A stretch of 51,151 nt of DNA, taken from IMG/VR virus record IMGVR_UViG_3300046170_000002, positions 1 through 51,151 of that record. One strand, given 5' to 3'. This document shows, in pieces, positions 5,872 to 24,607 of this stretch. The notes under the pieces were generated by a model. The model did not search any database. It had not been told where the DNA came from and saw only the letters and a list, made by a program, of their open reading frames with translations. Within the stretch, counting starts at the first letter, position 1. Every line of letters starts with the position of its first letter. This DNA is from a virus. Its lineage: Duplodnaviria > Caudoviricetes. A program made the position numbers and the translations under genes.

Positions 5872-5877
5872 TTGTTT

Positions 5878-7473: not shown

Positions 7474-7476
7474 ATT

Positions 7477-8390: not shown

Positions 8391-8391
8391 A

Positions 8392-8520: not shown

Positions 8521-8534
8521 ATTTATCTCCTATT

Positions 8535-8563
8535 AAAAAGTGGAGGGTCAATTAAGACCCCCC
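8535..8563 (-). terminator. Intrinsic terminator after the major capsid gene
   Basis: GGGGGGTC-TTAATT-GACCCTCC hairpin followed by ACTTTTT on the minus strand. Confidence 0.75.
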
Positions 8564-8572
8564 GAGTGACAA

Positions 8573-9547: not shown

Positions 9548-9571
9548 GATATATTCCTTTAGTTATAATAG

Positions 9572-10444: not shown

Positions 10445-10461
10445 TTTCTATTCTCCTACTC

Positions 10462-10573
10462 AGGGCTTGTTTCACAAGGTAGCTCTATGTCGACTAGAGG
10501 GCTTGTTTGTAAAGGTAGCCTTTCGGTTATTAAAATGATAAAGGGCTGAGTAATTAATTCAGGTAGCTTTATC
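10462..10573 (-). promoter_or_regulatory. Three copies of a GCTACCT...AGCCCT hairpin motif in the scaffold leader
   Basis: Copies at about 10462-10483, 10498-10520 and 10537-10573. Confidence 0.6.
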
Positions 10574-10584
10574 GTTATAGTTGT

Positions 10585-11244
10585 TTAGCTTTGGATGTAG
10601 CTTTTAGAACCACCAATAGTACGCTTTGTTAATTCATCTTGAACAGTAGGGTCATCCTGAACTATTCCTGATTGACTTAACATAGGTTTTATTTTAGTTT
10701 CTTCTTCTGGCATTCCACCTTCTGCTAAACCTTGTCTTTCATCTGCAGCAGCTTCAGCATCTTTCATCATAGACATTAAAGCGTCTTCTCCGATTTCTTC
10801 TACAGCTTTTGCAGTAAAGACAAATTCTCCATCAGATAACCTAGCAGGTATACTGTCAGAGACTCCTGAACCCGGACCATTAACAGGACCAGACCCAGTA
10901 AATTCTTGAGCAACATCTATTATCTTATCAAATAACATAGATAATTCCTCGTCTTGTTCTAGTTTGGAAGTTAGCATATCTTCTTCTTCTTCGCTTAATG
11001 CTTCTTCCATTATAAATCTTGTGTAGTTATCTTCCATGTCATCATCTGATTCCATTTCAGATTTCATTGGTGGTGTCATAACCATTAACATTTGGTCATC
11101 CATTGACCCACCTTCAGCTTTTTTCTTTCTGTACATACCACCCATATACTTAGGCTCTCTGTCTTCTGCAGCTTTTTTCATTGGTTCAGTTTTATTACCG
11201 TCTTTATCTAAATCTAAATAATCTGGTTTTTCTAACATTGACAT
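10585..11244 (-). CDS. Head-region protein with GPGSGVSDSIPARLSDGEFV domain
   Basis: Motif recurs in phage virion and tape-measure proteins; acidic; located between portal and scaffold. Confidence 0.6.
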   Translation of the reverse strand: MSMLEKPDYLDLDKDGNKTEPMKKAAEDREPKYMGGMYRKKKAEGGSMDDQMLMVMTPPMKSEMESDDDMEDNYTRFIMEEALSEEEEDMLTSKLEQDEELSMLFDKIIDVAQEFTGSGPVNGPGSGVSDSIPARLSDGEFVFTAKAVEEIGEDALMSMMKDAEAAADERQGLAEGGMPEEETKIKPMLSQSGIVQDDPTVQDELTKRTIGGSKSYIQS

Positions 11245-11477
11245 TATATTTCCTCTTTTCTATTAATTGCTTCTTTAACCTGTAGGTCCAACTGCCCTAG
11301 GCGTTCCAGAGAATTCAGCTTCCCCTGCAACCGGTACATTTCCAATTCCGATGTTGCCACCACCAGTGCCTGTAACTCCAAGTTCTTGAGGTTGTTCAGG
11401 TGTTCCTTGAACGCCTCCCATAGGTCTTTGTTCCCCGTCAGGAGATTGAGCCTGTTCGCTATTCGTTTGTCCAGCAT
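11244..11477 (-). CDS. Small helical protein overlapping the portal C-terminus
   Basis: 77 aa with EMYRLQGK motif typical of the small gene that follows podovirus portals; stop overlaps the next ATG. Confidence 0.6.
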   Translation of the reverse strand: MLDKRIANRLNLLTGNKDLWEAFKEHLNNLKNLELQALVVATSELEMYRLQGKLNSLERLGQLDLQVKEAINRKEEI

Positions 11478-13488
11478 TTTGCATTCCTATTATTTGTGCC
11501 ATCATAGCTGCTTCTTCAGGGTCGTTGAGTATTTCATCAGGGTCTAAGTCTAAGCTATAAGCAAGTTCACTAACGAGTTTAGAAATCTTAACAAAAGGAG
11601 CAACAGCAGGATTTTGAGCAGTTTGTAAAAACATAGTAAGTCTTTGACTTCTAACTTCTTTTTGCATCAAGCTATTAGTACCTGTAGCTTTAACTTCTAA
11701 ATCACCTTTTACATCCAACTCGTCCTCTAGAAATTGCATGTTCCACTGGAAATAAGCTTCTCCAAGTGGCTTCAATAAAAAGTCATCAAGATTTTTGATA
11801 ACTGTTTTAATATTTAAACTTGAAGCACCTAGTAACATTGACATGCCAGAAGCAGTCCTTGTCATACTCTGTACTCCTGTTTGTCCGTGTGAATAACTAG
11901 GTATACCTGTTTGTTCATCTGCAAGTTGTCTAAACTTGTCAAACATCATTAAGTTTTCTTGTGATGTATTAGGAAACTTTAAACCGTGTATAGCTTGTCC
12001 GGGCATTCCAGCTTGTCTTCTAAAAACTTTACCCGGATATATTTCCATTGATTGTCCACCAACTAAAGCAGACTCGTCTACATCAAACACTAGAGAACCA
12101 GACATTGCTAAGTTATCTATAGCCATTCTTGCATGACCGTTCATAATCTGTTGTGAATCATCCATGTTTTCTGCTACACCAATACCAAAAAAGTTGTATG
12201 GGTTTCTTTCGTATGGGAAAGCATGATAAGGTATTCTATAAGGTGTAAATGGATTTAGTACTGCTCTTAATAAATAAGTACCACATGTCCATATATTTAC
12301 CTGTACTTCATCTAAGTCATCAACGCTGTCGGGTAAGTCAATTCCTACTTCTCTTGCATACTCTGCATCCATTATTCCCCAGTACTCTAAGACTTCGTAG
12401 TTAGTACCTACTTCTTCATCATATCTTGAGTCATCTTTTAACTGGCTTTCAAAATCTTTTTCTACGTAATTAGCACCCATTTGAATAGCATTACGTATTG
12501 CATCTTCGTCAAAGTAAGGCATGTTTCTTAACTGTCTTAGTTGACTTCTATTCATTTTGTGTCTATGAATTACATATTCACATTCTTCCATGTTAGTAGC
12601 ATTGGGGTCTGGATAAAAATCCCAACAACTTACAAACTCTATTCTAGGTACTCTAACTTCTAAAGGGTTATAGGTTCTGTTACCTTCTTCATCTGTATCC
12701 CATTTGTGAAGTTTTTTGTTAAAGTTAAATGGTCCTTTTACAATCCCTGTGCCTAGCAAAGCAGATTCTAAAAGAGCATTTCTCATTTCAGCATTACCAT
12801 TAGATTCTTCTATCTGGTCATGGATAAGTTTTTCCATTCTTCTTGCAGCTTTTTGTGCAGGAGATACTTCTAAAACTTGAGGGTCTGGACTAGCTCCGTC
12901 TTTTAATATACCTAAACTTTCTGCTTGGTCTTCAAGACTATCTTCAAAAATACCATTGTAATATGTAGCTCCGGGCTTTAAAGTTTTACCATCACCTTCG
13001 TAACCAACATCATATGGATTTACATTAGTGCCTTCTCTATTACCAATATCATCAGGCATTTCACCTTCAGTTGTTTCTAATCCGGGAATAGGATTACTTG
13101 TATCTAAATGTGCGTAGTCTGTTTCGCCTTCAGGTATTTTAGTTTCTGAAATTCCTATCGGAAATTTACCTGTACCAAAAATAACATCTACAAGTTGTCC
13201 AAAGGCTGCAAGTACTTTAGTCTTAGTAACTTTTACAAATACTCTAGACTTTTCAGATTCTCTAAACTTAATACTTTTAGCGTATAAGCCTCTATAGTTT
13301 TCGTATGCTTTTAACCAACGAGTCTCGTCAGTTTGTCTAGCGTCTTCAGCAATTGCAAATCTATCTTTAATAGTTCCTATAAGATTTCTTTGTTGGTCTT
13401 CTTCAAGAGTAAGCTGTACTCCAGACTCACCTTCAACTTCTTCGTAGATACTATCAGCGTTTAGAAATGTATTTGTATTCTCTGCCAT
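11275..13488 (-). CDS. Portal protein
   Basis: 737 aa after terL; LLGTGIVKG, DFYPDP, FFGIGVAE, TRTASGMSML motifs. Confidence 0.85.
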   Translation of the reverse strand: MAENTNTFLNADSIYEEVEGESGVQLTLEEDQQRNLIGTIKDRFAIAEDARQTDETRWLKAYENYRGLYAKSIKFRESEKSRVFVKVTKTKVLAAFGQLVDVIFGTGKFPIGISETKIPEGETDYAHLDTSNPIPGLETTEGEMPDDIGNREGTNVNPYDVGYEGDGKTLKPGATYYNGIFEDSLEDQAESLGILKDGASPDPQVLEVSPAQKAARRMEKLIHDQIEESNGNAEMRNALLESALLGTGIVKGPFNFNKKLHKWDTDEEGNRTYNPLEVRVPRIEFVSCWDFYPDPNATNMEECEYVIHRHKMNRSQLRQLRNMPYFDEDAIRNAIQMGANYVEKDFESQLKDDSRYDEEVGTNYEVLEYWGIMDAEYAREVGIDLPDSVDDLDEVQVNIWTCGTYLLRAVLNPFTPYRIPYHAFPYERNPYNFFGIGVAENMDDSQQIMNGHARMAIDNLAMSGSLVFDVDESALVGGQSMEIYPGKVFRRQAGMPGQAIHGLKFPNTSQENLMMFDKFRQLADEQTGIPSYSHGQTGVQSMTRTASGMSMLLGASSLNIKTVIKNLDDFLLKPLGEAYFQWNMQFLEDELDVKGDLEVKATGTNSLMQKEVRSQRLTMFLQTAQNPAVAPFVKISKLVSELAYSLDLDPDEILNDPEEAAMMAQIIGMQNAGQTNSEQAQSPDGEQRPMGGVQGTPEQPQELGVTGTGGGNIGIGNVPVAGEAEFSGTPRAVGPTG

Positions 13489-13491
13489 ATA

Positions 13492-15129
13492 TTAATAACC
13501 AAAAGTTGAATCAGAAGGACTAAACATATCTGATTTTATTCTTAACATCCTATCTTGTGGATGGTCCATTCTAGGTCTACTCATTAACAAATACCTTAGT
13601 GCATCATATGCGTGGTCTGCTGCATGAGTATCCACATCTTCAGGATTAGACTTAGAAAGAGGCAAAGCCTGTATTTCTTTTATTAAATTGACACATGTGT
13701 TAAATATTTGCAACCTAGGTCTTCCTGTATTATTATTCTTTCTCAGGTACTCATGTATTTGAGTCTTACCTGCTAATCTATTCTTATCAGCTCGTCTTAG
13801 TTTATGTCCTTTATTAACTAATATTTCACCAATCGTAGGACCTGTATAACCTGTCCTAGACCATGCTGCTGTATCAAGTACCCCAGCTATGGATTTTATC
13901 TCTTCCATTTCCATCTCTGTAATGGTGTCTCCGAGTGCTTCTCCTGTCAGACCTTTTTTGTATAATTCTCTATATATAATAATGGTCTTATCTTCAGGGT
14001 CGATAGCAGCCCAAAGACAGCAACTTTCTGCAGCATAACCGTAGTCTACTGCTTTAACTCTTTCCCACCACCCCGGTAATTCAAAAGGTGGTATGACGTG
14101 TGTTTCTGTCTCAAACTCTGCGAATGCTGCTCCTTCTGAGATATCCCAGTTACCTTCCAACAACTGTTTACGTTGTATGGCTGGTAAGGATTGTAGCATC
14201 CTTTCGTATTCACCGTCTTCAGCAAGGTGAGGATTATCCTGTAACAATGCTGGTATAAACTTTCTACTGAGACCGTCCTTACCTTCAAAACTTGTATTCT
14301 GTTCTGCTGGTTCTACGTATCTCTTTTTAACCCAAGCAGCACCAACACCACCGGGGTTAGCTGTACATCTTAGATAAGTCTTAATGTCTGGATTAGTAGT
14401 TCTCAAACGAGAAGCTAAATAGTTCCATCCAAACTCTGTGGGTAAGTGAGTTATCTCATCAAACCCTATCCAACTGTACGCTTGTCCTTGATAACGATAA
14501 ACATCTGCATCTCGTTCCAAGAACCCAAACTCAATCTTTGCTCCACTTGGGAACTGCCATAACTTTTCTACTTCTTTAAACTTAGCACCTTTAAAGGCTA
14601 TCGGATAAAGCTCTCGAGACTTATCTATAAGTTCTCTTAGTTCTGGCATAGACCTTCTAAGTATCAAAGCTCTATGCTCTGTTATGTGGCAGTATCGCAA
14701 CGGGTCTATTAACATTGCAAAACTTTTACCACCACCTGCTGCACCACCGTAAAGAACATCTTTCTCACCTGCAGCTAGAAAGTCTGTCTGTGGTCCTTCG
14801 TTTGGCATAAAAGCCACATGAGAACCAGTCGTATCTAAATGTTGTTGTATAGCATCAGGAAGCTCTTTTGCTTCTGATTCTGTTATAACATTAGATGTTA
14901 AAACTTTCTCTTCTTTGTCAAGTTCTTTCTTGACTCTAGCTAAACTTCTTGTTAGCTTTTTAACTTTCTTACTTTTCTTGTTAAGTTTATTCTTTGCTTG
15001 TAAAGCTAACTTAATGTCAGAAAGTTCTGAATTTTTTGGTCTACCGGGTCTAAGCCTTGGTGTACCGTCTTTCTTTAGTATATAACTCCCATCTGGGTTT
15101 GTCAAGTACTTTTTAGAATTATCTTCCAT
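13492..15129 (-). CDS. terL: Terminase large subunit
   Basis: Walker A YGGAAGGGKS, Walker B IGFDE, TANPGG, nuclease VDYGY and DHAYDALRY. Confidence 0.95.
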   Translation of the reverse strand: MEDNSKKYLTNPDGSYILKKDGTPRLRPGRPKNSELSDIKLALQAKNKLNKKSKKVKKLTRSLARVKKELDKEEKVLTSNVITESEAKELPDAIQQHLDTTGSHVAFMPNEGPQTDFLAAGEKDVLYGGAAGGGKSFAMLIDPLRYCHITEHRALILRRSMPELRELIDKSRELYPIAFKGAKFKEVEKLWQFPSGAKIEFGFLERDADVYRYQGQAYSWIGFDEITHLPTEFGWNYLASRLRTTNPDIKTYLRCTANPGGVGAAWVKKRYVEPAEQNTSFEGKDGLSRKFIPALLQDNPHLAEDGEYERMLQSLPAIQRKQLLEGNWDISEGAAFAEFETETHVIPPFELPGWWERVKAVDYGYAAESCCLWAAIDPEDKTIIIYRELYKKGLTGEALGDTITEMEMEEIKSIAGVLDTAAWSRTGYTGPTIGEILVNKGHKLRRADKNRLAGKTQIHEYLRKNNNTGRPRLQIFNTCVNLIKEIQALPLSKSNPEDVDTHAADHAYDALRYLLMSRPRMDHPQDRMLRIKSDMFSPSDSTFGY

Positions 15130-15364
15130 ATACCTTGTCTACGTGTTTTTTCAATCCGGGTCTAGACATCTTTCTTCCTGTCTCTGCCTCTAACCAATCT
15201 ACTCCAATACCTAGACTAATTTCTCCGTGAAAGACTGCTTCAGATACTTCTTTTAACACCTTTAGTTCTTCTTCTATAGGTTTAAGAAAAGAATCAGTGT
15301 CTTCATCCATTTCATATCCAAAAGGTATGGTTGATGAAGTTCTTGTTATATAACCATCTTTCAT
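15119..15364 (-). CDS. Small putative DNA-binding protein (TIPFGY motif)
   Basis: 81 aa; PFGY plus helical segment resembling the DNA-binding part of serine recombinases; coupled to terL. Confidence 0.5.
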   Translation of the reverse strand: MKDGYITRTSSTIPFGYEMDEDTDSFLKPIEEELKVLKEVSEAVFHGEISLGIGVDWLEAETGRKMSRPGLKKHVDKVYGR

Positions 15365-15612
15365 TTTACTTTTCTGTAAGCTCTTGTTTTTCTTGCAGTT
15401 TTCTTTGGTTGCTTACTGTGCTGCTTTCCTTTTTTGGTGTCTTCTCGTTTCTTTCTAGTTGTTCTTGCGTATTCTTCTTTAGATAGTGCCTTAATAGCCT
15501 TCTCTGGGAGATACCTTTCCCCAGTCTCTGACGATTTTTTACCACTCTTGGTACGCCATTTTTGCTTTGTCCAAGCTCTAAGACTTCTTTGAGACTTTTT
15601 TAGACTTGACAT
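15361..15612 (-). CDS. Small Lys/Arg-rich protein
   Basis: 83 aa, WTKQKWRTKSGK...ERYLP; very basic. Confidence 0.65.
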   Translation of the reverse strand: MSSLKKSQRSLRAWTKQKWRTKSGKKSSETGERYLPEKAIKALSKEEYARTTRKKREDTKKGKQHSKQPKKTARKTRAYRKVK

Positions 15613-15796
15613 TCTTCTTTGGTTTGGTTGTTAAACATTGTTTAAATATTTTTGCATAACATTTCTTTGCTTTATCCATCATCTTAATCATAAATTCTTT
15701 AATCCTTTTCATTTTATTTATAGCCTCCCCCTTTGGCTTTGTATTGTTTTGCAAGGAGCTGGGCTTTTCTAGCAGACCATTGACCGGCTTTACCAC
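15578..15796 (-). CDS. Small basic protein (start probably at MKRIKEF)
   Basis: Fills the gap between two basic ORFs; start uncertain. Confidence 0.4.
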   Translation of the reverse strand: MVKPVNGLLEKPSSLQNNTKPKGEAINKMKRIKEFMIKMMDKAKKCYAKIFKQCLTTKPKKNVKSKKVSKKS

Positions 15797-15905
15797 CTTT
15801 GGTACCGGCTTTAATGCTGTTGAAAAGCCTCTTACGCATAGTTGGCTTGGTATAATTACCAGCTTTATTTACAGTTGACTTACTCTTTTTCTTTGTTGGC
15901 ATCAT
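15714..15905 (-). CDS. Small Lys/Arg-rich protein
   Basis: GQWSARKAQLLAKQYKAKGGGYK; GGAGG Shine-Dalgarno. Confidence 0.65.
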   Translation of the reverse strand: MMPTKKKSKSTVNKAGNYTKPTMRKRLFNSIKAGTKGGKAGQWSARKAQLLAKQYKAKGGGYK

Positions 15906-16071
15906 TGCCTCCTTTATTAAATATTAAATCCCAGTTATCTCTATACGTTTTAGAGTGTATATTAACTCTAGGTGCAGAACCTTTACCACCGTCTGAAGGT
16001 TTGTAAAGTCTACCCTTATTCTTTTTACTAGACATAAGGACAGGTTTCTCGTTGCTTCCTAGTTGTGGCAT
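15880..16071 (-). CDS. Small basic hypothetical protein
   Basis: 63 aa, GKGSAPR...NWDLIF; tightly packed in the operon. Confidence 0.55.
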   Translation of the reverse strand: MPQLGSNEKPVLMSSKKNKGRLYKPSDGGKGSAPRVNIHSKTYRDNWDLIFNKGGNDANKEKE

Positions 16072-16072
16072 T

Positions 16073-16363
16073 CTACCACTTTACCTTGTCAGCCCAATAA
16101 GCTGCTGACATCTTTCCTTTAGCAATGTTCTTACCGTGTCTTGCTTTAAAAGACTTTCTCTTTGCTTTCATTCTGGCTGATTCACCTGCTTTAGGTTTAC
16201 CAGCAGTCTTGGCACCCTTTTGACCAAACCTAATAGTTTTAATCTTATCACCTTCTTTAGCCACAACAATGTGTGATTTAGTCTTGTGACCCGGAGTTCT
16301 TTTAGGTTTGTTAAACCCTGAAACTCCTGCTCGTTTTAATCTACTATCTCTTTCTTTTGGCAT
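16073..16363 (-). CDS. Small Lys/Arg-rich protein
   Basis: 96 aa, KTIRFGQKG...SFKARH...SAAYWA. Confidence 0.65.
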   Translation of the reverse strand: MPKERDSRLKRAGVSGFNKPKRTPGHKTKSHIVVAKEGDKIKTIRFGQKGAKTAGKPKAGESARMKAKRKSFKARHGKNIAKGKMSAAYWADKVKW

Positions 16364-16551
16364 TAGTGTACCTTCCTTTCTTCTAATTGTATATCGTGTT
16401 GTAATTCTTGTATCTCCCCAAGAACCAACAATCCGTATTGTATTGCTATTCTATTTGCTTCAGCGACTGTATCAGCTTTAATGTATGGACCTATTGCAGC
16501 TCCATCTTCATTAACATGCTCAGTTATCCAAAGCCTAGTCATAGTCTGCAT
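16363..16551 (-). CDS. Hypothetical protein
   Basis: 62-aa ORF coupled to both neighbours. Confidence 0.5.
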   Translation of the reverse strand: MQTMTRLWITEHVNEDGAAIGPYIKADTVAEANRIAIQYGLLVLGEIQELQHDIQLEERKVH

Positions 16552-16963
16552 CCTCTGCTTCTATGATTACCGGTGCTTTATCAGGCATAAGAAAGATACC
16601 ACCACTGTTCATGTTGTGATTAATATCTACTTTATCTACTCTACTAACACCAACTCTATCTAATAACGTCTGTGCAGCAGTAAGTTTATTAGCTGCTTGT
16701 ACTATAGGTTTCTTAGATTCCATTATCTCTACAAGTTTAAAAGCTGCTTTAGGGGCTGAGTTAGCTAGTATCTCTTGAGTGAGTTCTAGTATCTCAGACT
16801 TTAAAGTCTTTACAACATGATGGTAATGGGAAGAATAACCAGCAAGTTCTGCTGCTTTCTTTGCATCACCACTAGTATTGACTAGGTGTTCTAGGAAAGA
16901 CTTCTGCTTATCTGTTAATTCTCTTTTAGTTGTTGTGTTATCTACACTTGGTAATATAGCCAT
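16535..16963 (-). CDS. terS: Terminase small subunit (probably leaderless, start MAILPSV)
   Basis: LTDKQKSFL...AKKAAELAGYS helix-turn-helix and LLDRVG; first gene of the late operon; ATG 7 nt below a -10 box. Confidence 0.7.
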   Translation of the reverse strand: MAILPSVDNTTTKRELTDKQKSFLEHLVNTSGDAKKAAELAGYSSHYHHVVKTLKSEILELTQEILANSAPKAAFKLVEIMESKKPIVQAANKLTAAQTLLDRVGVSRVDKVDINHNMNSGGIFLMPDKAPVIIEAEDADYD

Positions 16964-16969
16964 GCATCT

Positions 16970-16998
16970 AGTATACACATCGATTCTAAACTTGTCAA
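16970..16998 (-). promoter_or_regulatory. Sigma70 promoter for the packaging/head operon
   Basis: TTGACA (16998-16993), 17 nt, TATACT (16975-16970). Confidence 0.85.
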
Positions 16999-17023
16999 GC
17001 TTTAAAGTTTTTTTATGAAAGCC

Positions 17024-17052
17024 TTGACAAAAGTGGAATGCGTTGTTATACT
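17024..17052 (+). promoter_or_regulatory. Divergent sigma70 promoter firing into non-coding DNA
   Basis: TTGACA (17024-17029), 17 nt, TATACT (17047-17052). Confidence 0.8.
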
Positions 17053-17953
17053 AAACGTAGTGTCCCCTCCCGGGTCAACATATACCCACAACACCCTCAT
17101 CAAACAATTGACTGCCTAGTAGACAGGAACTTATTGTGGGCGAAATAAATACCTTTAAAGTCTTTAAAGATTTTAGAGTTTTAGTGTCGGGGCGTTAACT
17201 AGTTCTAGTTAATGACCATTATTCTAGAAAATGTATAACCATGCTATAGATATATAGGGTAGAGGGTATGGTCTCCTGCCTCCCCCTTAATAGATTTGAG
17301 ATTGCCTAAATTGGACATCTTCAAAACTCTATAACTTGTAAGGCTTCGGAGTCTTTGGGCTTTACCAGACTCTGTTCTTTTGGTAGCGTTCTCTTTATCT
17401 CTGTAAACATCTACAGAGCCTTACATTCAGAAGCTTCAGAGGATTCTTGAAGTTCTTAACGCCTTTCATCTTTAGCAAGACTATTGTCAAACAGATTCCA
17501 TGTTGCTCTGAAGTTTCTGCATTCATAGCCTCACATTCTTGTCAAACTTTTCACCTCTGCTTGACACTCTCTCAGTGGGCTTTTGTTCTATCTTTGTCAA
17601 CACTTATTATATCTGCATGGTATTTTCCATTGCAATTATCCTTTAAGAAACTCCAATCGTTAGACTAGAATGTAGTATTCACTCGGTTAAAGTTCACTCC
17701 TCTTCACTATCTGATTCAATACTCTAAAGCTTTAAAGTCAATCCTCCTAAGTCCTTGTTCCATTTTAGCCTGAGAAACTCAACTCTATAGTTTCACTCCT
17801 AATTCTATTAAAATCATAACATCTCCAAATATTTTCTAGTTTACAATGACATAAAGACTTTAAAGTGACAAATGTTTACAGTATTTCCTCGAAGACTCGG
17901 AAATCTATAAAACTTTTGTTCCCAAAACCTCACAAAACTCAAGCATTTGCAAC

Positions 17954-17982
17954 TTGAAAATCTTCATGTTTTTGTGTATTCT
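17954..17982 (+). promoter_or_regulatory. Sigma70-like promoter for the first two early genes
   Basis: TTGAAA, 17 nt, TATTCT; GGAGA Shine-Dalgarno and ATG 18001 follow. Confidence 0.6.
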
Positions 17983-18000
17983 TTAATATATGGAGATAAC

Positions 18001-18183
18001 ATGATTTTAATAGATTACTCAAACAATGAAACTATAGAGTTTCAAACAATTTCTCAGGCTAAAATGTTCACTGCAGACTTACTCGAAGTTGACATTAAAG
18101 CTTTAGGAATCAGATGTGAAGACTCATCTGACTTTAACCTCCTAGAAGACTACATTCTAGGGCTAACTCATTCCATTTCTTAA
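18001..18183 (+). CDS. Early hypothetical protein (60 aa, MILIDYSNNET...)
   Basis: GGAGA Shine-Dalgarno; lies in the right arm of the inverted repeat. Confidence 0.7.
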   Translation: MILIDYSNNETIEFQTISQAKMFTADLLEVDIKALGIRCEDSSDFNLLEDYILGLTHSIS

Positions 18184-18194
18184 AGGAGAATATT

Positions 18195-18467
18195 ATGGAA
18201 AATACATTTGATATAAACGCTTTTGACAAAGATAGAACTTCAAGCCCAGCTTCGTTCAAACAATGTCAAGCTATCGGCTACAAGTTTGCCAAGAAAGGTT
18301 CAGCTATGAACTGGAAACTTCAGAAGCAAATTACAGGCTGTCTGTATAGTCTTGCTAAAGATGAAAGACTAAACTTCAAGAAAGCTCATCAGCTTCTTCA
18401 GGGTAAGTCTCTTCCGAAGGTTTACCTCGATAAAATCGACCACTACCTAAAAGAAAAGGTCAGCTAA
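18195..18467 (+). CDS. Early basic hypothetical protein (90 aa, PASFKQ motif)
   Basis: AAGGAG Shine-Dalgarno; lies in the right arm of the inverted repeat. Confidence 0.75.
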   Translation: MENTFDINAFDKDRTSSPASFKQCQAIGYKFAKKGSAMNWKLQKQITGCLYSLAKDERLNFKKAHQLLQGKSLPKVYLDKIDHYLKEKVS

Positions 18468-18475
18468 AACCTCAA

Positions 18476-18511
18476 AGACTCTCTCGCCTTACAAGTGAGA
18501 GAGTTTCTTTA
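18476..18511 (+). terminator. Intrinsic terminator closing the two-gene cassette
   Basis: ACTCTCTC...GAGAGAGT stem followed by TTCTTT. Confidence 0.65.
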
Positions 18512-18675
18512 TGTCTGCATAAAATCTCAAATCTAATCTTAATAGTGAAATTACTTTGTAATTGCTCTTTATGAGGGCAGTCGACCACACCAAAGAAGTT
18601 AAATAAGTTAATTAAGTTAAGATAAAACTCGAGCTTTAAGTTTAAGTCGGTTGGGCTGGTAATTGAGGGCAAATC

Positions 18676-18810
18676 TGTGGATAACTTATCTAAATTTATG
18701 TATATCTTATGTATATCCTGTTAATTACTTGTGGATAAGTATAAATTATCTGTGGATATCCTGTGAATTTAAGTTTAAATTTAAGTTTGAATTTAAGTAT
18801 AATTTTAAGG
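18676..18810. promoter_or_regulatory. DnaA-box array plus AT-rich 12-mer repeats (oriC-like or injection-stop-like)
   Basis: TGTGGATAA at 18676 and 18730, TGTGGATAT at 18751; AATTTAAGTwTr x3 at 18766-18801. Confidence 0.65.
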
Positions 18811-18868
18811 TTGTGTTTAAGTCCTAGCAAACTTAAAGTATAAGTATATCTTAAGTTTGTTAAGACGC

Positions 18869-18896
18869 TTGACTTTTGCCAACGCTTCGCTAAAAT
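18869..18896 (+). promoter_or_regulatory. Early sigma70 promoter
   Basis: TTGACT, 16 nt, TAAAAT; shares upstream CTTAAGTTTGTTAAGA with the promoter at 19272. Confidence 0.65.
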
Positions 18897-18950
18897 GGGT
18901 GTCGGCTCAGCAGGGAACAAACCCCCGCTTAATTTTTAAAACAATCGGAG

Positions 18951-19238
18951 ATGATTATGAAAACGAAATGTAAAAACCCAAATGGTAAATCTAATATGCA
19001 AGTCATTCAAGACTCAAAATTGAGTGCTTTAAAATTTAATAGCCTTGACAAAGTTGAACGGTATATCAATGAGTTAGGCTATGTTTTCAAAGTAAGAAAT
19101 TCTGTTAAAGAAGATAGGTCTGTAATTTATAGACATAAGTTTCCTAAAAATGGACATGTGTTTCTTAAATCAACCTATGACTTTTTGAATGACAACACTA
19201 TGGAAATGGGAACAGTTTGGACGATTAGCAAATTTTAA
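18951..19238 (+). CDS. Early hypothetical protein
   Basis: 95-aa ORF with GGAG Shine-Dalgarno. Confidence 0.65.
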   Translation: MIMKTKCKNPNGKSNMQVIQDSKLSALKFNSLDKVERYINELGYVFKVRNSVKEDRSVIYRHKFPKNGHVFLKSTYDFLNDNTMEMGTVWTISKF

Positions 19239-19271
19239 ATATAAATATATACTTAAGTTTGTTAAGAACCC

Positions 19272-19300
19272 TTGACACCGACCGAGAAAGTTGCTATAAT
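19272..19300 (+). promoter_or_regulatory. Strong early sigma70 promoter
   Basis: Perfect TTGACA, 17 nt, TATAAT with extended -10 TG. Confidence 0.9.
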
Positions 19301-19354
19301 TTGTCGGTCAGCAACCAACCGAGACTTCAAAGTCTCATAAATATAGGAGATATT

Positions 19355-19468
19355 ATGGAAGAACGAGACCACTTAGAATTTTTAGATTTTATGACCGAAC
19401 AGGAATTAAAAGCTGAAACAATTGAAGCTAATAATGAATTAGCTGAAGATATTAACCCAATAGTATAG
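19355..19468 (+). CDS. Small acidic early peptide (37 aa, MEERDHLEF...)
   Basis: AGGAGA Shine-Dalgarno; 12 Asp/Glu versus 2 Lys/Arg. Confidence 0.6.
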   Translation: MEERDHLEFLDFMTEQELKAETIEANNELAEDINPIV

Positions 19469-19477
19469 GAGATAAAC

Positions 19478-19675
19478 ATGGCAGATATTAGATTACACAA
19501 AGTAACTAAAATTGAAATTAAAAAAGTAGACAAAGGTAATGGATATCTTTGTAGAGATATTGTTATTTATAACAAAGAATGGAATAGTGATTTAGGAGAC
19601 TATATAACTATGGAAACAACTTTAGATTTGTTTTTAGAAAATAAGTCTGCAACTAAATTAGTCTACGAGAAATAA
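19478..19675 (+). CDS. Early hypothetical protein
   Basis: 65 aa with AGGAGA Shine-Dalgarno. Confidence 0.65.
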   Translation: MADIRLHKVTKIEIKKVDKGNGYLCRDIVIYNKEWNSDLGDYITMETTLDLFLENKSATKLVYEK

Positions 19676-19792
19676 ATCCGAGAAGATGTAAGGCATAAAT
19701 TATTAAATTAAAAACTGCTTTCTTGAAGATATATAGTGCTAGGTATCACTAAAAAGTGCCTACAATATTAACTAAAAATATGGAGATATATT

Positions 19793-20200
19793 ATGGCGAA
19801 AATCGTCTATGGAAAAAGAAATACTACAACCGTTGATTCAATATATGACTACGGAAGTATAAGTGAAAAAGCTATTTGGAACTATGCAAATAGTCTAGGT
19901 GTAAATATTATTAGAGTTAGAGCTAGTAAAGAAAGATATGAAACTACTACAGGAGATACTTTCAATGGGTATCATTCAGGTAAAGTATCTATCTATCAAC
20001 AAAAGCCTAAACCAAATAAACCTTTACATTTTGTAAGAAGAACACCACTTGGTAAAGACAACAAAGGTATGCAAATACTTGAAGTTGCTGATAATATTGA
20101 TACACAACAAGTTTTAAAAACTTTACAAGACTATGAGTATTATACAACCAATGGTTTCTTTGCTAGGTTGGGTATAACATTCAGAAGAATGTTTGCTTAA
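19793..20200 (+). CDS. Early hypothetical protein
   Basis: 135 aa with GGAGA Shine-Dalgarno. Confidence 0.7.
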   Translation: MAKIVYGKRNTTTVDSIYDYGSISEKAIWNYANSLGVNIIRVRASKERYETTTGDTFNGYHSGKVSIYQQKPKPNKPLHFVRRTPLGKDNKGMQILEVADNIDTQQVLKTLQDYEYYTTNGFFARLGITFRRMFA

Positions 20201-20347
20201 AAGATTTAGTGTTTAACGAGCCTATCATAAAATCCTTAAGTGGTCATAGGTTGAGAGTTGGAGTAAGTGCTAGAAACCGTTTTCCAACACACTAAGAGTG
20301 CTAGGTATCACTTTAAAGTGCCTCTTTTAACTTAATGGAGATAAAAT

Positions 20348-20524
20348 ATGTTTGATGAAATATTAGAATGTGTCATCTGTGAAGGTGATATAGAACAAAA
20401 GAAAACAGAAGATGGTAAAGTATATTGGAATCAAGGAGAAAACGCAGAACCTTATGCAGAAGGTAGATGTTGTTCTTATTGTCATTCAGTATTTGTTTTA
20501 CCTACAAGAATGGAGAGAATATAA
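20348..20524 (+). CDS. Small Cys-rich zinc-finger-like protein (58 aa), not in the ORF track
   Basis: MFDEILECVICEG...GENAEPYAEGRCCSYC; GGAGA Shine-Dalgarno. Confidence 0.7.
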   Translation: MFDEILECVICEGDIEQKKTEDGKVYWNQGENAEPYAEGRCCSYCHSVFVLPTRMERI

Positions 20525-20850
20525 TGCCAAAAAAACAAGTAGGATTTCAGAATCCAAAATACGAAACATATAGATTTATATTTAATTATATATGGGAAGA
20601 TAACGAAGAACTTATACAGCTTTCAACTCATAGTTGTACATTTAATAATGAGAGAGAAGAAGTAAAGATGTTAGAGTATCCTAAACAACAAGCTATGGAA
20701 TTGTTTAAGATAATGGCTACTGCACACTTCTTTAAAGGTAATGCACATAAAAGAATACTTGACTACAATGTAAGTTGTATCATGGAGATATCCTCTAAGA
20801 GTTTAAACAACTCAGCAAGAGGTCATAAAATATATATTGAGGAGGTATAA
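20524..20850 (+). CDS. Early hypothetical protein (start MPKKQVGF)
   Basis: TAATG overlap with the upstream gene. Confidence 0.6.
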   Translation: MPKKQVGFQNPKYETYRFIFNYIWEDNEELIQLSTHSCTFNNEREEVKMLEYPKQQAMELFKIMATAHFFKGNAHKRILDYNVSCIMEISSKSLNNSARGHKIYIEEV

Positions 20851-20851
20851 C

Positions 20852-21013
20852 ATGGGATACGAAGATTTAGCAAATGTAAATAGAGTGATAGAGTTTATAC
20901 ATGAGTATAAGAACTGTGGCTTAAAAGAATCTGGAAGATTAAATGATTTAAATATTGGAGAAGCTATCTCTTATTTAGAAGAGATAAGACAAGAAATAAT
21001 AGATAATATATAG
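20852..21013 (+). CDS. Early hypothetical protein (53 aa, MGYEDLANV...), not in the ORF track
   Basis: GGAGG Shine-Dalgarno; fills the gap exactly. Confidence 0.6.
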   Translation: MGYEDLANVNRVIEFIHEYKNCGLKESGRLNDLNIGEAISYLEEIRQEIIDNI

Positions 21014-21021
21014 GAGAAATT

Positions 21022-21729
21022 ATGAGCTATAAACTATTGAGTTTTAACAACCCTAAAGTTTTGAAGGGTGAGAAGATAAGTAATTACTTAACTGCTATTA
21101 TGCATTTGAGTCCAATCAACACCAAGATATGTCCTTATCAGGACGTTGCAGGGTGCAAGGAAGCCTGTCTAAATACAGCAGGTAGGGGTGGCATTATAAA
21201 AAAGGGTGAAACCACTAATGTCATACAAGAAGCTAGAAAGCGTAAGACTAAATTGTATTTGGAGGACAGAGAAACCTTCATGACTTACCTTATTACAGAC
21301 GTTATGAAGTTTGTAAGATACTGTGAAAAGAAAGATAAGCTTCCTTGCATAAGATTGAATGGCACTAGTGATATACAATGGGAGACTATTAAGATAGACG
21401 GACAAAATATCTTTGATATCTTTCCGACTGTACAATTCTATGATTACACAAAGATACCTACAAGAAAAGTAGACCAACATAAAAACTATCACTTGACATG
21501 GAGCTACTCAGAAGCTAATATGAAGTACGCCAATCTGTTTGACAAGATTGCTTATAACATAGCAGTTGTATTCAATGGTAATATGCCTATACATTTCAAG
21601 GGTAGAGAGGTAGTCAATGGAGATGAAAGTGATTTAAGATTTTTAGATAAGAGCAATGTGATTGTTGGTCTGAAAGCAAAGGGCAAAGCACGTAAAGATA
21701 CTAGTGGCTTTGTAATACAAACTACATAG
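21022..21729 (+). CDS. GP88-like phage protein (Cys-triad, radical-SAM-like fold suspected)
   Basis: ICP...GCKEACL, IRLNGTSDI, FYDYTK, GDESDLRFLD, GLKAKG motifs. Confidence 0.65.
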   Translation: MSYKLLSFNNPKVLKGEKISNYLTAIMHLSPINTKICPYQDVAGCKEACLNTAGRGGIIKKGETTNVIQEARKRKTKLYLEDRETFMTYLITDVMKFVRYCEKKDKLPCIRLNGTSDIQWETIKIDGQNIFDIFPTVQFYDYTKIPTRKVDQHKNYHLTWSYSEANMKYANLFDKIAYNIAVVFNGNMPIHFKGREVVNGDESDLRFLDKSNVIVGLKAKGKARKDTSGFVIQTT

Positions 21730-21737
21730 GAGATAAT

Positions 21738-21875
21738 ATGAAAATAATAGGTTGGAAATTAGTTGCTTATTGGGAAGATGATACTAAAGAAGATGTATCT
21801 CTTGACATGCCTTATTGGGTAACTAAAAGAATAGATAATTTTTTAGATGAATTAGAGGAGGAAAATGATGAGTAA
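21738..21875 (+). CDS. Small acidic hypothetical protein (45 aa), not in the ORF track
   Basis: AGGAGA Shine-Dalgarno; MKIIGWKLVAYWEDD... Confidence 0.55.
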   Translation: MKIIGWKLVAYWEDDTKEDVSLDMPYWVTKRIDNFLDELEEENDE

Positions 21876-22068
21876 TATACACAACGAACAAACACAAGAA
21901 CAAATATATGAAAAAATATATGAACAAGTTTTAGAAGATGATTCTAAAGGCTTATTAGAAACTGAAATAAGAGACATGCAACTTATATATAATTTGCACC
22001 CTGATGATGATAGAGAAGAAATACTATGCTTCATAGCTGAAAGTATTTATTATAACCAACACAACTAA
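21865..22068 (+). CDS. Acidic hypothetical protein
   Basis: GGAGG Shine-Dalgarno; 67 aa. Confidence 0.6.
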   Translation: MMSNIHNEQTQEQIYEKIYEQVLEDDSKGLLETEIRDMQLIYNLHPDDDREEILCFIAESIYYNQHN

Positions 22069-22077
22069 GGAGAAAAT

Positions 22078-22314
22078 ATGAAAACTAAAATATTAAAAAG
22101 TAAAGTACTTGTTGACATGAGTGTTAGTGAGTATGATACTATGTTTAAATATATAGGTAAACTTGAAAGTATGTTAAATACTTTACATGAGACAAATGAT
22201 TTGTGGTTGTCTGATGTTCATAATTTAAGCAGTCTTAAATGGGAATTGGTAGAGATGTTAGATGCTGAATGGGATTCAAGTACTTATAGATATGTAAAGA
22301 GAGGTAATAAATAA
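22078..22314 (+). CDS. Hypothetical protein
   Basis: AAGGAG Shine-Dalgarno; 78 aa. Confidence 0.6.
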   Translation: MKTKILKSKVLVDMSVSEYDTMFKYIGKLESMLNTLHETNDLWLSDVHNLSSLKWELVEMLDAEWDSSTYRYVKRGNK

Positions 22315-22315
22315 T

Positions 22316-22663
22316 ATGAAAGCAATACTAATAAATCCATATGATGCAACAATAAAAACAACTGAATACACAGGAGACTATAGAGAAATCTATGACCTTA
22401 TAGGGTGTAGAAGTTTTGACTGTGTTCGTATCTATGAGACACAAGATATGTATATTGATGATGAAGGTTTACTTATGGATAATCAAAGATACTTTACTAT
22501 GAATGATAGAGTATATGCAGGTAAGGCTTTATTACTATCTCACAATGATGAGGGAGAAACAACAGGTACAAATTTAGATTTACAAATGGTTGAAGATATG
22601 GTAGAATGGTTACCTGAAGGACACAAAGAAACTCCTTACATGGAGTTCGTAGCATGGAAATAA
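22316..22663 (+). CDS. DUF3846-like protein
   Basis: MKAILINP...YIDDEGLL...YAGKALL pattern. Confidence 0.6.
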   Translation: MKAILINPYDATIKTTEYTGDYREIYDLIGCRSFDCVRIYETQDMYIDDEGLLMDNQRYFTMNDRVYAGKALLLSHNDEGETTGTNLDLQMVEDMVEWLPEGHKETPYMEFVAWK

Positions 22664-22664
22664 T

Positions 22665-22928
22665 ATGAACGCAAAACAAATTAAGAAACTTAGAAAGCTA
22701 GTCAAACCTATACAGGTTGAGTGGCTACAAACTTTATTGCCTGATGAACAAGCCATGACTATTACAGTTGATAATGTTGAGGGATTACTTCCTGAACAAA
22801 CACATGCTTTTGGTCAAGGGCAATTACATATGTCATACATGACAGACAAGTGGATAATGAAATACTTAAAACAATATCCAAACATAACAACATACAAAGA
22901 ACTGATGGAGGTATCAGACAATGGATGA
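22665..22928 (+). CDS. Hypothetical protein
   Basis: 87 aa in a tightly packed operon. Confidence 0.6.
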   Translation: MNAKQIKKLRKLVKPIQVEWLQTLLPDEQAMTITVDNVEGLLPEQTHAFGQGQLHMSYMTDKWIMKYLKQYPNITTYKELMEVSDNG

Positions 22929-23193
22929 ATACGTAATAGATGTAGTAATTAATGGAGAAGCAGATAGTCTTAAGACTTGGTGTAGCTCTGTGTATTCTGC
23001 TGTTGATAGTATGATAGGTATAGACATGGTTGAGGATATCAAAACAATCACAAGAACTTTAGATGGTAAAGTATGGGATGTAAAAGATATGGACATTGAC
23101 TACTTAAGAAACTTAAAAGAAAACATAGACGAGTCTGTATTGTCTGATGCTTTTAAAACAATAGAGGACTTAGCTCATGACTCAACACACTGA
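22921..23193 (+). CDS. Acidic hypothetical protein
   Basis: GGAGG Shine-Dalgarno; 90 aa. Confidence 0.6.
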   Translation: MDEYVIDVVINGEADSLKTWCSSVYSAVDSMIGIDMVEDIKTITRTLDGKVWDVKDMDIDYLRNLKENIDESVLSDAFKTIEDLAHDSTH

Positions 23194-23374
23194 TAGAGTA
23201 CAGAAACAAAAAGAAAGATTAGAACAAGAAAGACTTGATAACTCTATAAAATTTATAGAGGTTAGATTTGCAGAGGGTAAGTGGACAACAGAAACTACAG
23301 GATATAATAGTGGTAGAGTTGTCACTAAATATAATGATAAAAGAAAAAAGGATAAGATAGAAAATGAAATTTAA
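23177..23374 (+). CDS. Hypothetical protein
   Basis: GAGG Shine-Dalgarno; 65 aa. Confidence 0.55.
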   Translation: MTQHTDRVQKQKERLEQERLDNSIKFIEVRFAEGKWTTETTGYNSGRVVTKYNDKRKKDKIENEI

Positions 23375-23513
23375 TATTAAAGATATAAACTATATAGGAA
23401 TAATTATTGCTTTGTTGATTGCTTTGATTGGATTAAATATAGATACAAAAAATAAACAAGATGAAAGATGTTGGAATATGTTAAAAGAAATAGCAAACAG
23501 TACGGAGATATAA
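23364..23513 (+). CDS. Small single-pass membrane protein (49 aa), not in the ORF track
   Basis: MKFNIKDINYIGIIIALLIALIGLNI...; overlaps both neighbours in coupling geometry. Confidence 0.5.
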   Translation: MKFNIKDINYIGIIIALLIALIGLNIDTKNKQDERCWNMLKEIANSTEI

Positions 23514-23719
23514 TGGAAACTAAATTTAAAAAATTAACTGAAGATGAGTATAGAAACTTTGAAGCTTGGATAAGAGAGAACGGTAAAGAACTATATGAAA
23601 ACAAAATAGCTTACGAAGTTAGGTGGGGCAAAGATGATGACACTTATACTGTAAGACTATGTGATGAAAGTAGTTATACATTAAATGATATAATGCTTGA
23701 CATCGAGGACAAAAGCTGA
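23513..23719 (+). CDS. Hypothetical protein (start METKFKK)
   Basis: GGAGA Shine-Dalgarno and TAATG coupling. Confidence 0.55.
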   Translation: METKFKKLTEDEYRNFEAWIRENGKELYENKIAYEVRWGKDDDTYTVRLCDESSYTLNDIMLDIEDKS

Positions 23720-23725
23720 TACAAT
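23697..23725 (+). promoter_or_regulatory. Sigma70 promoter for the replication operon
   Basis: TTGACA, 17 nt, TACAAT with extended TG. Confidence 0.8.
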
Positions 23726-23805
23726 GTGCAACATGACATCGAGCAACCAAAGAACTTTAAGCCCTCTATCTCCAAATGTAAACGATTTGGTTTGGCTTCA
23801 GTCCA

Positions 23806-23836
23806 TGACTCCGAGAGTAGTCAGCTCGAAACTCTC
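23806..23836 (+). promoter_or_regulatory. H-type pseudoknot in the SSB mRNA leader
   Basis: S1 TGACT/AGTCA, S2 GAGAGT/ACTCTC, loops of 2, 0 and 7 nt. Confidence 0.6.
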
Positions 23837-23878
23837 TCAATTTTTAACGAACTATTAACTAAACCGTAGGAGGTAAAT

Positions 23879-24292
23879 ATGATAGTAGAAGGAACTGCGT
23901 ATTGGGCAAGTATTAAAGAGCCTAATACCACATTTGAACCTATGTACACAGTCAACTTAGTTGTTGATGAAGAGACTGCAAGTGACTTTGCAACTCGTGG
24001 ACATACCATTAAGCAGATGGACGAAGGTTCTGCTATAGTAATCAAACGTAAAGTCAATGGACCAAATGGAATGGTCAGGGTTGCACCTAGATTACTAGAC
24101 CAAAACAAACAGGAAGTTAATCTTGCTGTAGGTAATGGTTCTAAGGTCAGAGTCCAATACAATGAATACGATTGGGAGTATGCAGGTAAGGCAGGGAAAG
24201 GTCTTGACTTACAAGCTGTTCAGATTGTAGACTTGGTAGAGTATAAATCATCTGATGGCTCTGAATTTTTTGACGATGACGAGGAATTTTAA
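23879..24292 (+). CDS. Single-stranded DNA-binding protein (T7 gp2.5-like)
   Basis: VGNGSKV...LQAVQIVDLVEY and acidic tail ending in Phe (FFDDDEEF). Confidence 0.85.
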   Translation: MIVEGTAYWASIKEPNTTFEPMYTVNLVVDEETASDFATRGHTIKQMDEGSAIVIKRKVNGPNGMVRVAPRLLDQNKQEVNLAVGNGSKVRVQYNEYDWEYAGKAGKGLDLQAVQIVDLVEYKSSDGSEFFDDDEEF

Positions 24293-24293
24293 T

Positions 24294-24557
24294 ATGATTA
24301 TTACTATTAAAAATGATGACGGTGAATCAGTCTATGATGTTTCAAAGATTGAAGATGAGCAGAAAAGAGCAGGTGCTAATGTATCTATCAGTAAGATAGG
24401 TACTTTGAATGTGTTGGTCGAAGCTTTGAACTATGCTTCACAAGGTCATCAAAATAATCTTGAAGCTGTGCTAAAGGAAAGTCCTGAAGCAGTAGTTGAA
24501 CAAGATGATAAAGAAGAAACTTCAACCGAAGAGGAATCTTTAAACGAGGTATCTTAA
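24294..24557 (+). CDS. Acidic hypothetical protein (start MIITIKND)
   Basis: ATG just after the SSB stop; GAGG Shine-Dalgarno. Confidence 0.55.
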   Translation: MIITIKNDDGESVYDVSKIEDEQKRAGANVSISKIGTLNVLVEALNYASQGHQNNLEAVLKESPEAVVEQDDKEETSTEEESLNEVS

Positions 24558-24607
24558 TATAACTCGGCTAGGTGTAAAAGCCTAGCCACATTTCTAATGG
24601 AGATAGA

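Follow-up and report, generated by a model that had tools for sequence, protein, structure and literature searches.

The window analysed here is the whole 51,151-base IMG/VR entry IMGVR_UViG_3300046170_000002 (rated linear, 97% complete), from a double-stranded DNA (dsDNA) phage. It carries a long imperfect inverted repeat formed by a left arm (17287..17878), an apical loop (17879..17940) and a right arm (17941..18542). On its plus strand the right arm contains an upstream region, two small open reading frames (ORF1 and ORF2) and their terminator, and the left arm is a non-coding mirror of this cassette. The comparison with related phages gives the firm result that the left arm is maintained to pair with the ORF1-ORF2 cassette. 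Mismatches between the two arms are biased towards those that are tolerated on the minus strand, and the reading favoured here, tentatively and with somewhat less than even confidence, is that a minus-strand fold-back is under selection, as single-stranded DNA or as RNA, and that pairing within the plus-strand mRNA is deliberately weakened.

Structure and retention of the inverted repeat

When aligned with 17941-18542, the reverse complement of 17287-17878 was colinear and gave 456 matches and 101 mismatches, besides 80 gap columns. The identity of the arms was 82% over the aligned bases and 72% when gaps were counted, the longest exact block between them in the window was 22 nucleotides (nt), and the local alignment score was 305 compared to a maximum of 29 in 20 shuffles. 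A colinear repeat of about 600 nt with exact blocks of up to 22 nt had been described in the original prediction, made from the window alone, and the alignment confirms it. A second inverted repeat of more than 37 nt was not found anywhere in the 51 kb of the window.

ORF1 (18001..18183, plus strand) and ORF2 (18195..18467, plus strand) encode conserved small proteins of 60 and 90 amino acids (aa), the latter helical, and both have a GGAG-type ribosome site. Their intrinsic terminator (18476..18512, plus strand) consists of a stem at 18476-18506 followed by a T run; in the relatives the stem covaries and is followed by seven to eight T residues. The mirrored frames of the left arm, in contrast, contain stops, indels and frameshifts. 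The longest left-arm ORFs in 25 representative sequences were 20-80 aa, with positions that are not conserved on either strand, in agreement with the earlier claim that this arm is non-coding and broken by stops and indels.

Pairing between the arms was uniform up to ca. 18505 (0.6-0.88 paired per 10-nt bin) and at most 0.3 beyond that position, and also in most of the relatives it stops at ca. 18505, the end of the terminator stem. The Shine-Dalgarno site and the AUG of ORF1 were paired in 0.87 and 0.84 of the representatives, respectively, and the ribosome site of ORF2 in 0.76-0.81. The 60 nt closest to the apex were both conserved and paired in the two arms. The apical loop is 62 nt long and includes a small conserved hairpin at 17885-17905, for which the compensatory variants ATTTCC/GGAAAT, ATTTTC/GAAAAT and ATTATC/GATAAT were found; in several relatives these 62 nt were 100% identical despite arms only about 80% alike. 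Within the mirror of the terminator (17324-17363 against 18467-18506) four bases of the 5' stem half differed in 14 of the 14 aligned sequences, which gives a conserved 4x4 internal loop and leaves the mirror unable to form the terminator hairpin. The longest exact blocks across the representatives were 13-26 nt. An upper limit on helix length was considered and rejected because the spacing of the exact blocks was random in most representatives, being under-dispersed only in L087, L143, L136 and L141.

Scans of IMG/VR detected 80 loci with terS, the gene of the terminase small subunit, and 60 loci with ORF2. At these 60 loci a plus-strand match was present for ORF1 in 57 and for ORF2 in all, partial at contig ends, and none of the 25 translated representatives had a premature stop in either gene. 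The repeat could be tested in 57 of the ORF2 loci (in two the script did not find ORF1 or ORF2, and one was too short on the left), corresponding to 52 distinct sequences besides the window. In all 57 the left arm was 79-93% complementary to its own right arm over approximately 350-600 nt, with scores of 149-567 against a shuffle maximum of 34. The mirror was kept even in relatives with an ORF2 identity of 50-55% to the window and right-arm DNA only ca. 67-70% alike. Primary-sequence conservation was 0.16-0.6 in the left arm and 0.65-0.9 in the right. At all loci with protein matches in the left arm these were stop-containing or short fragments, and no intact left-arm gene was found in any relative. 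Neither was a lineage with a freshly copied arm and intact genes found among the 53 distinct sequences, the identity of the arms never exceeding 93% and indels always persisting.

The presence of the repeat follows the cassette. Sixty-four distinct terS loci had 1500 nt or more of upstream sequence and were compared; the repeat was present in each of the 52 that have an ORF2 homologue and, with the same scoring, in none of the 12 that have no such homologue. An unrestricted self-scan of the 12 loci with alternative cassettes gave z values from -0.4 to 4.0, which were not significant. A fold-back in the cultured phage HTVC115P, where stricter alignment had given a weak one, was rejected as its scores lay within those of the shuffles.

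Two simple explanations of the repeat can be considered against these data. Stops and indels are present in the left arm of every genome, as they would be in a plain pseudogene left by the neutral decay of an old inverted duplication. A single duplication of this kind is, however, excluded because the left arm diverges between relatives and yet matches its own right arm, the complementarity within a genome being higher than the similarity of right arms between distant relatives; strong covariation and a mismatch spectrum opposed to mutation pressure (see below) also speak against neutral decay, which is extremely improbable. The mismatch spectrum was thus distinguishable from such decay, a check proposed together with the original prediction, and the retention and covariation of the arms uphold its claim that the left arm is kept for base pairing. 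Equally improbable is that the element is an assembly artefact or reflects joined genome ends such as terminal inverted repeats or hairpin telomeres. The GenBank record of HTVC115P does start just past terS, and the contigs L114 and L138 break inside the region, but 57 contigs (52 distinct) cross both arms and the apex, and arms only about 80% alike are unlike an amplification chimera; a chimeric assembly is excluded by these two observations. HTVC115P has no such repeat, and the replication genes of the window include a T7-like primase-helicase and a family A DNA polymerase, no protein-primed polymerase being found among them. The proposal that phage termini or first-injected DNA lie here gained no supporting evidence; the contigs run straight through the element, which argues against physical ends at the repeat.

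The two arms change together. Close relatives were compared in 11 non-overlapping pairs, and 147 of their 266 right-arm differences were exactly complemented in the left arm, against an expectation of 11.6; in 25 overlapping pairs, 255 of 499 differences were complemented. Covariation was also measured over 486 pairs in 14 aligned minus-strand hairpins, the pairs being taken from each sequence's own arm alignment. The proportion of cells paired was 81.7% (shuffles 76.9 ± 0.2%, slid controls 39-45%), 154 pairs were changed on both sides (shuffles 83.8 ± 5.4, slid controls 50-59), and the covariation score was 0.206 (shuffles 0.132, slid controls 0.063-0.075). The observed values of all three measures were reached in none of 500 shuffles; related sequences can exceed shuffles also without structure, but the slid controls, which keep the relatedness, were far lower.

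The compensated sites were not significantly clustered (runs z from -1.78 to +0.63 in the 11 pairs), and long conversion tracts were rejected for this reason. From the pattern of changes, either selection acting site by site or templated copying of short stretches appears to keep the arms matched. Compensation was equally frequent for transitions (89 of 157) and transversions (58 of 109), which is easier to explain by templated copying between the arms than by stepwise selection through wobble intermediates.

Templated copying is the basis of a further explanation, in which the element would be a quasi-palindrome that maintains itself and has no function. The coding arm would be copied again and again into the mirror, either by templated correction, through strand switching in a minus-strand hairpin at replication, or by short-patch gene conversion, and coding selection would set the direction of copying. 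Besides the equal compensation, the unclustered compensated sites fit point-like templated events, the element adjoins an origin-like region where the minus strand would be the lagging-strand template, and close relatives manage without a strong fold-back. However, the lack of a fresh intact copy among the 53 distinct sequences, with identities of at most 93% and persisting indels, speaks against such correction, and exact blocks of 13-26 nt are short for RecA-type exchange. Furthermore, about 600 nt of useless, deletion-prone DNA would have been held at constant length across a clade in which ORF2 identity goes down to 50%, and conservation extends to the ends of the left arm and to the apical hairpin. 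The explanation is considered distinctly unlikely.

Strand bias and the folded molecule

Of the transition mismatches between the arms, those forming G.U pairs on the minus strand were much more numerous than those forming G.U pairs on the plus strand: 57 against 6 in L087, 58 against 5 in L088, 55 against 5 in L143, 34-41 against 2-5 in L115-L122 and 19 against 8 in the window. Toggles between Watson-Crick and G.U pairs caused by left-arm changes only, counted between close relatives, included 198 on the minus strand and 36 on the plus strand. Also the transversions lean to the minus strand in 24 of the 25 representatives, for example with 198 G.G against 38 C.C mismatches in the minus-strand reading.

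The folding energies agree with this bias. With RNA parameters the minus strand folded more stably in 48 of the 53 sequences, with a margin above 10 kcal/mol in 46; the values for the minus and plus strands were -546.5 and -466.8 kcal/mol in the window and -624 and -402 kcal/mol in L087. With DNA parameters the minus strand was the better one in all five sequences tested. That one strand folds had been implied by the original prediction, and both the strand-specific mismatch bias and the folding with the two parameter sets agree with it; which strand is favoured, the minus, it did not predict.

A compositional cause of the bias was rejected, and a purely mutational one argued against, by two controls: the unpaired left-arm bases had no skew (GC skew +0.04, n = 806), and the four-fold degenerate sites were 85-91% A+T, with a mild skew that, taken relative to the coding strand, did not differ between the two genome strands. 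From this A+T richness, mutation should favour changes from C to T and from G to A. When the 25 representatives were pooled, the plus-strand wobble classes made up 4.5% of right-arm G sites and 2.5% of T sites, while the minus-strand classes made up 7.9% of A sites and 9.9% of C sites. Plus-strand wobble is mutationally easy at right-arm G sites and yet rarer, and minus-strand wobble at A sites is mutationally hard. In these sequences the strand bias is confined to paired positions and opposed to the inferred mutation pressure.

Opposite a right-arm G of the minus strand, the left arm had U, A and G in 9.9, 10.2 and 8.7% of the cases, respectively. By the stability order of mismatches in the two nucleic acids, this near-equality resembles DNA more than RNA, and it gives a weak hint of single-stranded DNA.

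In the minus-strand reading the left arm would be a selected non-coding partner of the first early cassette, comprising ORF1, ORF2 and the terminator, and would drift only as far as it remains complementary. The minus strand would fold back over approximately 560 nt, in the form either of DNA that is single-stranded in replication or of an RNA of the same polarity. This strand is the template of the ORF1-ORF2 mRNA, and it would also be the lagging-strand template for a leftward fork from the origin-like region. Because the conserved promoter P1 (described below) places the left arm and the genes on one message, the plus-strand pairing would have to be weakened: co-transcription of the left arm with ORF1-ORF2 would impose a second constraint, by which the plus-strand fold-back is limited and translation allowed. 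Both constraints could be met by substitutions that give G.U, G.A or G.G on the minus strand and A.C or C.C on the plus strand. As to the molecule that folds and the role of the hairpin, the candidates are a surrogate second strand that would keep the cassette duplex or transcribable while the minus strand is single-stranded, as in the Frpo elements discussed below, or a structure that would act at the origin. A new class of element, a 'mirror arm' by which the single-stranded minus strand of a dsDNA phage rebuilds the whole early cassette of promoter, two genes and terminator as a hairpin duplex, would be the Frpo principle on a larger scale, coupled to the neighbouring origin and tuned to pair strongly on the template and weakly in the mRNA; the proposal is unlikely to hold in this full form.

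Transcription of the region was considered from its promoters. P1 (17024..17052, plus strand; TTGACA-17-TATACT with an extended -10 element (TG), 11/12) reads into a conserved island (17151..17290, plus strand) and both arms. Its -35 hexamer is invariant and its -10 hexamer conserved in 25 of the 25 representatives, and it is the first in a series of near-consensus plus-strand promoters. Between P1 and ORF1 no near-consensus promoter was found. The right arm had been predicted to hold a promoter in addition to two ORFs with ribosome sites and a terminator; the ORFs, their ribosome sites and the terminator stood, whereas the promoter-like site at 17954-17982 is weak (9/12) and not conserved in the L093-like relatives. 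As P1 is conserved and no other near-consensus promoter precedes ORF1, plus-strand transcription of the left arm is most likely, giving a leader of ca. 940 nt ahead of ORF1-ORF2.

This leads to the second reading of the strand question, in which the left arm would be an antisense leader on the plus strand, co-transcribed from P1 or present as an RNA of its own of ca. 650 nt that ends at the apical hairpin, and would pair with the ORF1-ORF2 message and so limit its translation or stability. In the RNA-library run X2, a contig of 641 nt corresponds exactly to 17255-17895 with 98.8% identity (8 differences), starting 16 nt after a conserved TGTATAAT-like motif (17232-17239). The right arm had zero depth in that run, and the runs X4, X10 and X11 had right-arm contigs with little or no left arm; no RNA-library contig bridged the arms. 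These observations hint weakly at an accumulation of the left arm as a separate RNA, but the contigs carry no information on strand, ends or level, the full-length piece comes from one run and could be DNA, and regions that no library contig covers cannot be used as evidence. The plus strand, too, folds very stably (-467 kcal/mol when rounded). The mismatches are harder to reconcile with an antisense leader, as the wobbles that the plus strand tolerates and mutation favours are the rarest class, and A.C and C.C mismatches on the plus strand are common. An antisense leader is the likeliest alternative to the minus-strand reading and, on this evidence, rather unlikely.

Several observations weigh against the minus-strand fold-back. 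Apart from the equal compensation of transitions and transversions, they include the position of P1 as the fully conserved and sole near-consensus promoter before ORF1, the pairing map, which covers both ribosome sites and stops at the end of the plus-strand terminator stem, and the X2 contig. For the two small hairpins of the island, RNAalifold gave plus-strand stems with G.U pairs, in 25 of 25 sequences for one and in 21 of 25 for the other, which fits a plus-strand RNA. A conserved minus-strand promoter was not found to the right of the right arm, and a minus-strand RNA over both arms therefore has no identified source; nothing in the analysis points to a long-lived single-stranded stage of this dsDNA podovirus either. 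The plus strand was favoured in five of the 53 folded sequences, in four by less than 5 kcal/mol and in L142 by 19.8 kcal/mol. The L093-like and L135-L142 lineages had no strand bias; their left arms have few substitutions and many deletions of 2-9 nt, which leave perfect helices of 6-20 bp between bulges and are strand-neutral. Finally, close relatives with other cassettes have no strong fold-back, so it is not essential to this type of phage.

Exchangeable cassette and genomic setting

The element belongs to a swappable cassette (17287..19170, the end approximate) that contains the left arm, the apex, the right arm and an origin-like region. In 11 of the 11 loci examined among those with an alternative cassette, homology to the window extends through terS, P1 and the island and ends at 17280-17288, and in five of them it resumes at ca. 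19160-19170. These shared breakpoints indicate that the arms, apex and origin-like region form one exchangeable cassette. One of the loci, L060, has extra matches at 17836-17967, near the apex, and at 19032-19087. In another, L009, whose terS is 97% identical to that of the window, the place is taken by a different cassette with ORFs of 58 and 114 aa (400-2560 on the minus strand of the L009 locus). This cassette is arranged as in the window, a leader being followed by the two small ORFs, their terminator and TTGAGGGCG repeats. In a restricted test the leader of L009 gave a weak partial mirror of its own genes (107 against 60 ± 7), which is suggestive only.

The origin-like region (18560..18860) includes TTGAGGGC repeats, DnaA-box-like sites and AT-rich tandem repeats, and it is a candidate replication origin by its motif content. 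Three DnaA-box-like sites (18676, 18730 and 18751) lie within 85 nt, two of them perfect copies of TGTGGATAA, which we take to be the DnaA-box consensus, and one with a single mismatch. The two perfect sites are the only ones in the whole window, and the DnaA-box-like sites are present only in the window's own clade. The AT-rich tandem repeats have a 12-nt unit and are located at 18764-18822. The cumulative GC skew has its minimum at ca. 18 kb, a position confounded with gene orientation. Repeats of GAGGGC/TTGAGGGC(G) are found past the cassette terminator in the window (18573-18578 and 18663-18670), in relatives and in L009 (ca. 1040-1075). They may be iterons, and they differ between the clades.

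A palindrome-containing 16-nt motif, CTTAAGTTTGTTAAGA, occurs in identical copies at 18850-18865 and 19252-19267 and is conserved in relatives. Both copies sit just upstream of the -35 element of a plus-strand promoter (18869 and 19272), and the motif looks like an operator.

On the other side of the element, terS (16535..16963, minus strand) had weak matches to Terminase_2 and phrog_2538. A sigma-70-like promoter for terS and the late operon (16970..16998, minus strand; TTGACA-17-TATACT, 11/12) has hexamers conserved in the aligned relatives, in which a conserved CCATG of terS sits 7 nt past the -10 hexamer. The true start of terS is likely to be the ATG at 16963, and as this lies only 7 nt past the -10 hexamer, the terS mRNA is probably leaderless; the listed GTG start at 16978 would precede the transcription start. 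The divergent-promoter switch is thus at ca. 16970-17052 and not at the centre of the repeat. The original prediction had placed the element at the switch between late and early genes, but it lies inside the plus-strand unit downstream of P1 and is tied to the swappable cassette, not to genome architecture.

Between P1 and the island the sequence is variable. The island itself has a conservation of 0.8-0.92 and is kept even in relatives with other cassettes. Its hairpins, with invariant G.U pairs, are located at 17195-17230 and 17275-17300 on the plus strand, the TGTATAAT-like motif lies between them, and the first stem is extended in some relatives by a compensated loop insertion.

Neither ORF1 nor ORF2 had significant matches in Pfam, PHROGs or NCBIfam. 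The AlphaFold2 model of ORF1 had a mean predicted local distance difference test score (pLDDT) of 92.4 and a beta-beta-alpha-beta-alpha fold, and that of ORF2 a pLDDT of 83.8 and five helices. ORF2 has 20 invariant columns among 24 sequences, and its family includes 158 protein clusters in public metagenomes, none of them named. Against PDB sequence profiles the best match of ORF2 had a non-significant E-value of 0.5, and neither Foldseek against PDB (best E 2.4) nor a wide VIA-align search (best Z 4.8) gave a match above background. The best Foldseek match of ORF1 in PDB (E 0.45) was not above background either; its non-significant matches include the RNA-polymerase-binding YkzG (E 1.1) and T7 Gp2 (E 2.9-3.8), which serve as a lead only.

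The large terminase of the window is 66-67% identical to those of the Pelagibacter phages HTVC115P, HTVC104P and HTVC103P and 46-49% identical to those of HMO-2011-type phages. In addition to the T7-like primase-helicase and the family A polymerase, the window encodes a ribonucleotide reductase and an SU10-type portal; an RNA polymerase gene was not found, and a scan of the window for tRNA and tmRNA genes found none. The late genes are on the minus strand (154-16978 and 33004-50958) and the early and replication genes on the plus strand (ca. 18000-32663). The small chain of the ribonucleotide reductase is split into two plus-strand ORFs (31688-32221 and 32223-32663), which cover profile positions 3-174 and 178-281, respectively. 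Two minus-strand genes at the convergent strand switch (33004-34017 and 34742-35848) encode, respectively, a protein with an adenylate/guanylate cyclase catalytic domain (E 1e-20) and one with a FecR domain, both of them unusual cargo for a podovirus-like phage. A very basic protein of 96 aa is encoded at 16073-16363 on the minus strand, where the summed depth in the RNA-library contigs was by far the highest (77-85 in two runs); this depth sums many related phages and is not a measure of expression.

Significance and comparison with known systems

About 600 nt that would otherwise be annotated as empty intergenic DNA appear here to be under structural constraint, and a coding sequence that co-evolves with a non-coding partner over the length of a gene is an unusual natural case. 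We know of no phage example of gene-length, base-by-base co-evolution between coding and non-coding sequence with a strand-specific signature. The hosts of these phages belong to the dominant bacteria of the ocean, and the phage group is abundant, marine and uncultured. If the minus-strand reading is true, it would imply a so far unknown single-stranded stage or RNA in replication or early expression; if the plus-strand reading is true, the element would exceed in length, by a wide margin, any cis-antisense lock so far described in phages. In both cases it would provide a testable handle on the control of early genes in these marine phages. A full-text literature search gave no mention of inverted repeats in pelagiphages, and by term search inverted repeats, palindromes and promoters are absent from the article text, supplements aside, of PMC9038755 and bioRxiv 10.1101/2019.12.14.876532, which deal with these phage groups.

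The rod-like fold had been compared to viroids and hepatitis delta virus in the original prediction. This likeness found no support, as the region 16400-19600 had no Rfam match on either strand (E ≤ 1) and the locus is in the genome of a dsDNA phage.

The Frpo/ssi elements are closer to the minus-strand reading. In these, an imperfect hairpin in one DNA strand mimics a duplex, so that the host RNA polymerase can use the strand before its complement exists; they lie in regulatory regions of 50-350 bp upstream of genes (PMC11541004). Similarly, the better-folding strand of the present element is the template strand of the genes of the hairpin. The differences are in size and layout: the arms are ca. 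560-600 nt long, one of them consists of the genes themselves, and the stem has weak or unconserved promoter hexamers. No single-stranded entry stage is known for a tailed dsDNA phage.

The plus-strand reading has its closest counterparts in the c4 RNA of phage P1, which acts on icd-ant, and in the fold-back inhibition of hok mRNA, where an antisense element is co-transcribed with its target and pairs with it over tens of nucleotides. Judging from the promoter P1 and the pairing map, the upstream complementary element of the window could likewise mask the ribosome sites of the downstream genes. Unlike in these systems, the whole two-gene message is mirrored, and the wobble pairs do not show the preference of an antisense that acts on the transcribed strand.

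For plant hairpin-RNA and young microRNA loci, an origin by inverted duplication of the target gene has been modelled (PMC3237417). Like these, the phage element has a fold-back arm that is derived from a protein-coding gene and complementary to it. In the plant loci both arms are non-coding and lie at a separate locus that drifts from the target, whereas in the phage the functional gene itself forms one arm, adjacent to the other, the two have co-evolved across a whole clade, and no small-RNA machinery is implied.

In bacterial quasi-palindromes, templated synthesis within a hairpin can raise the complementarity of the arms; the known cases are tens of nucleotides long and act as mutational hotspots. 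The same process could yield the point-wise complementary changes seen between the arms of the present element, which differs from corrected quasi-palindromes in being 1.2 kb long and conserved.

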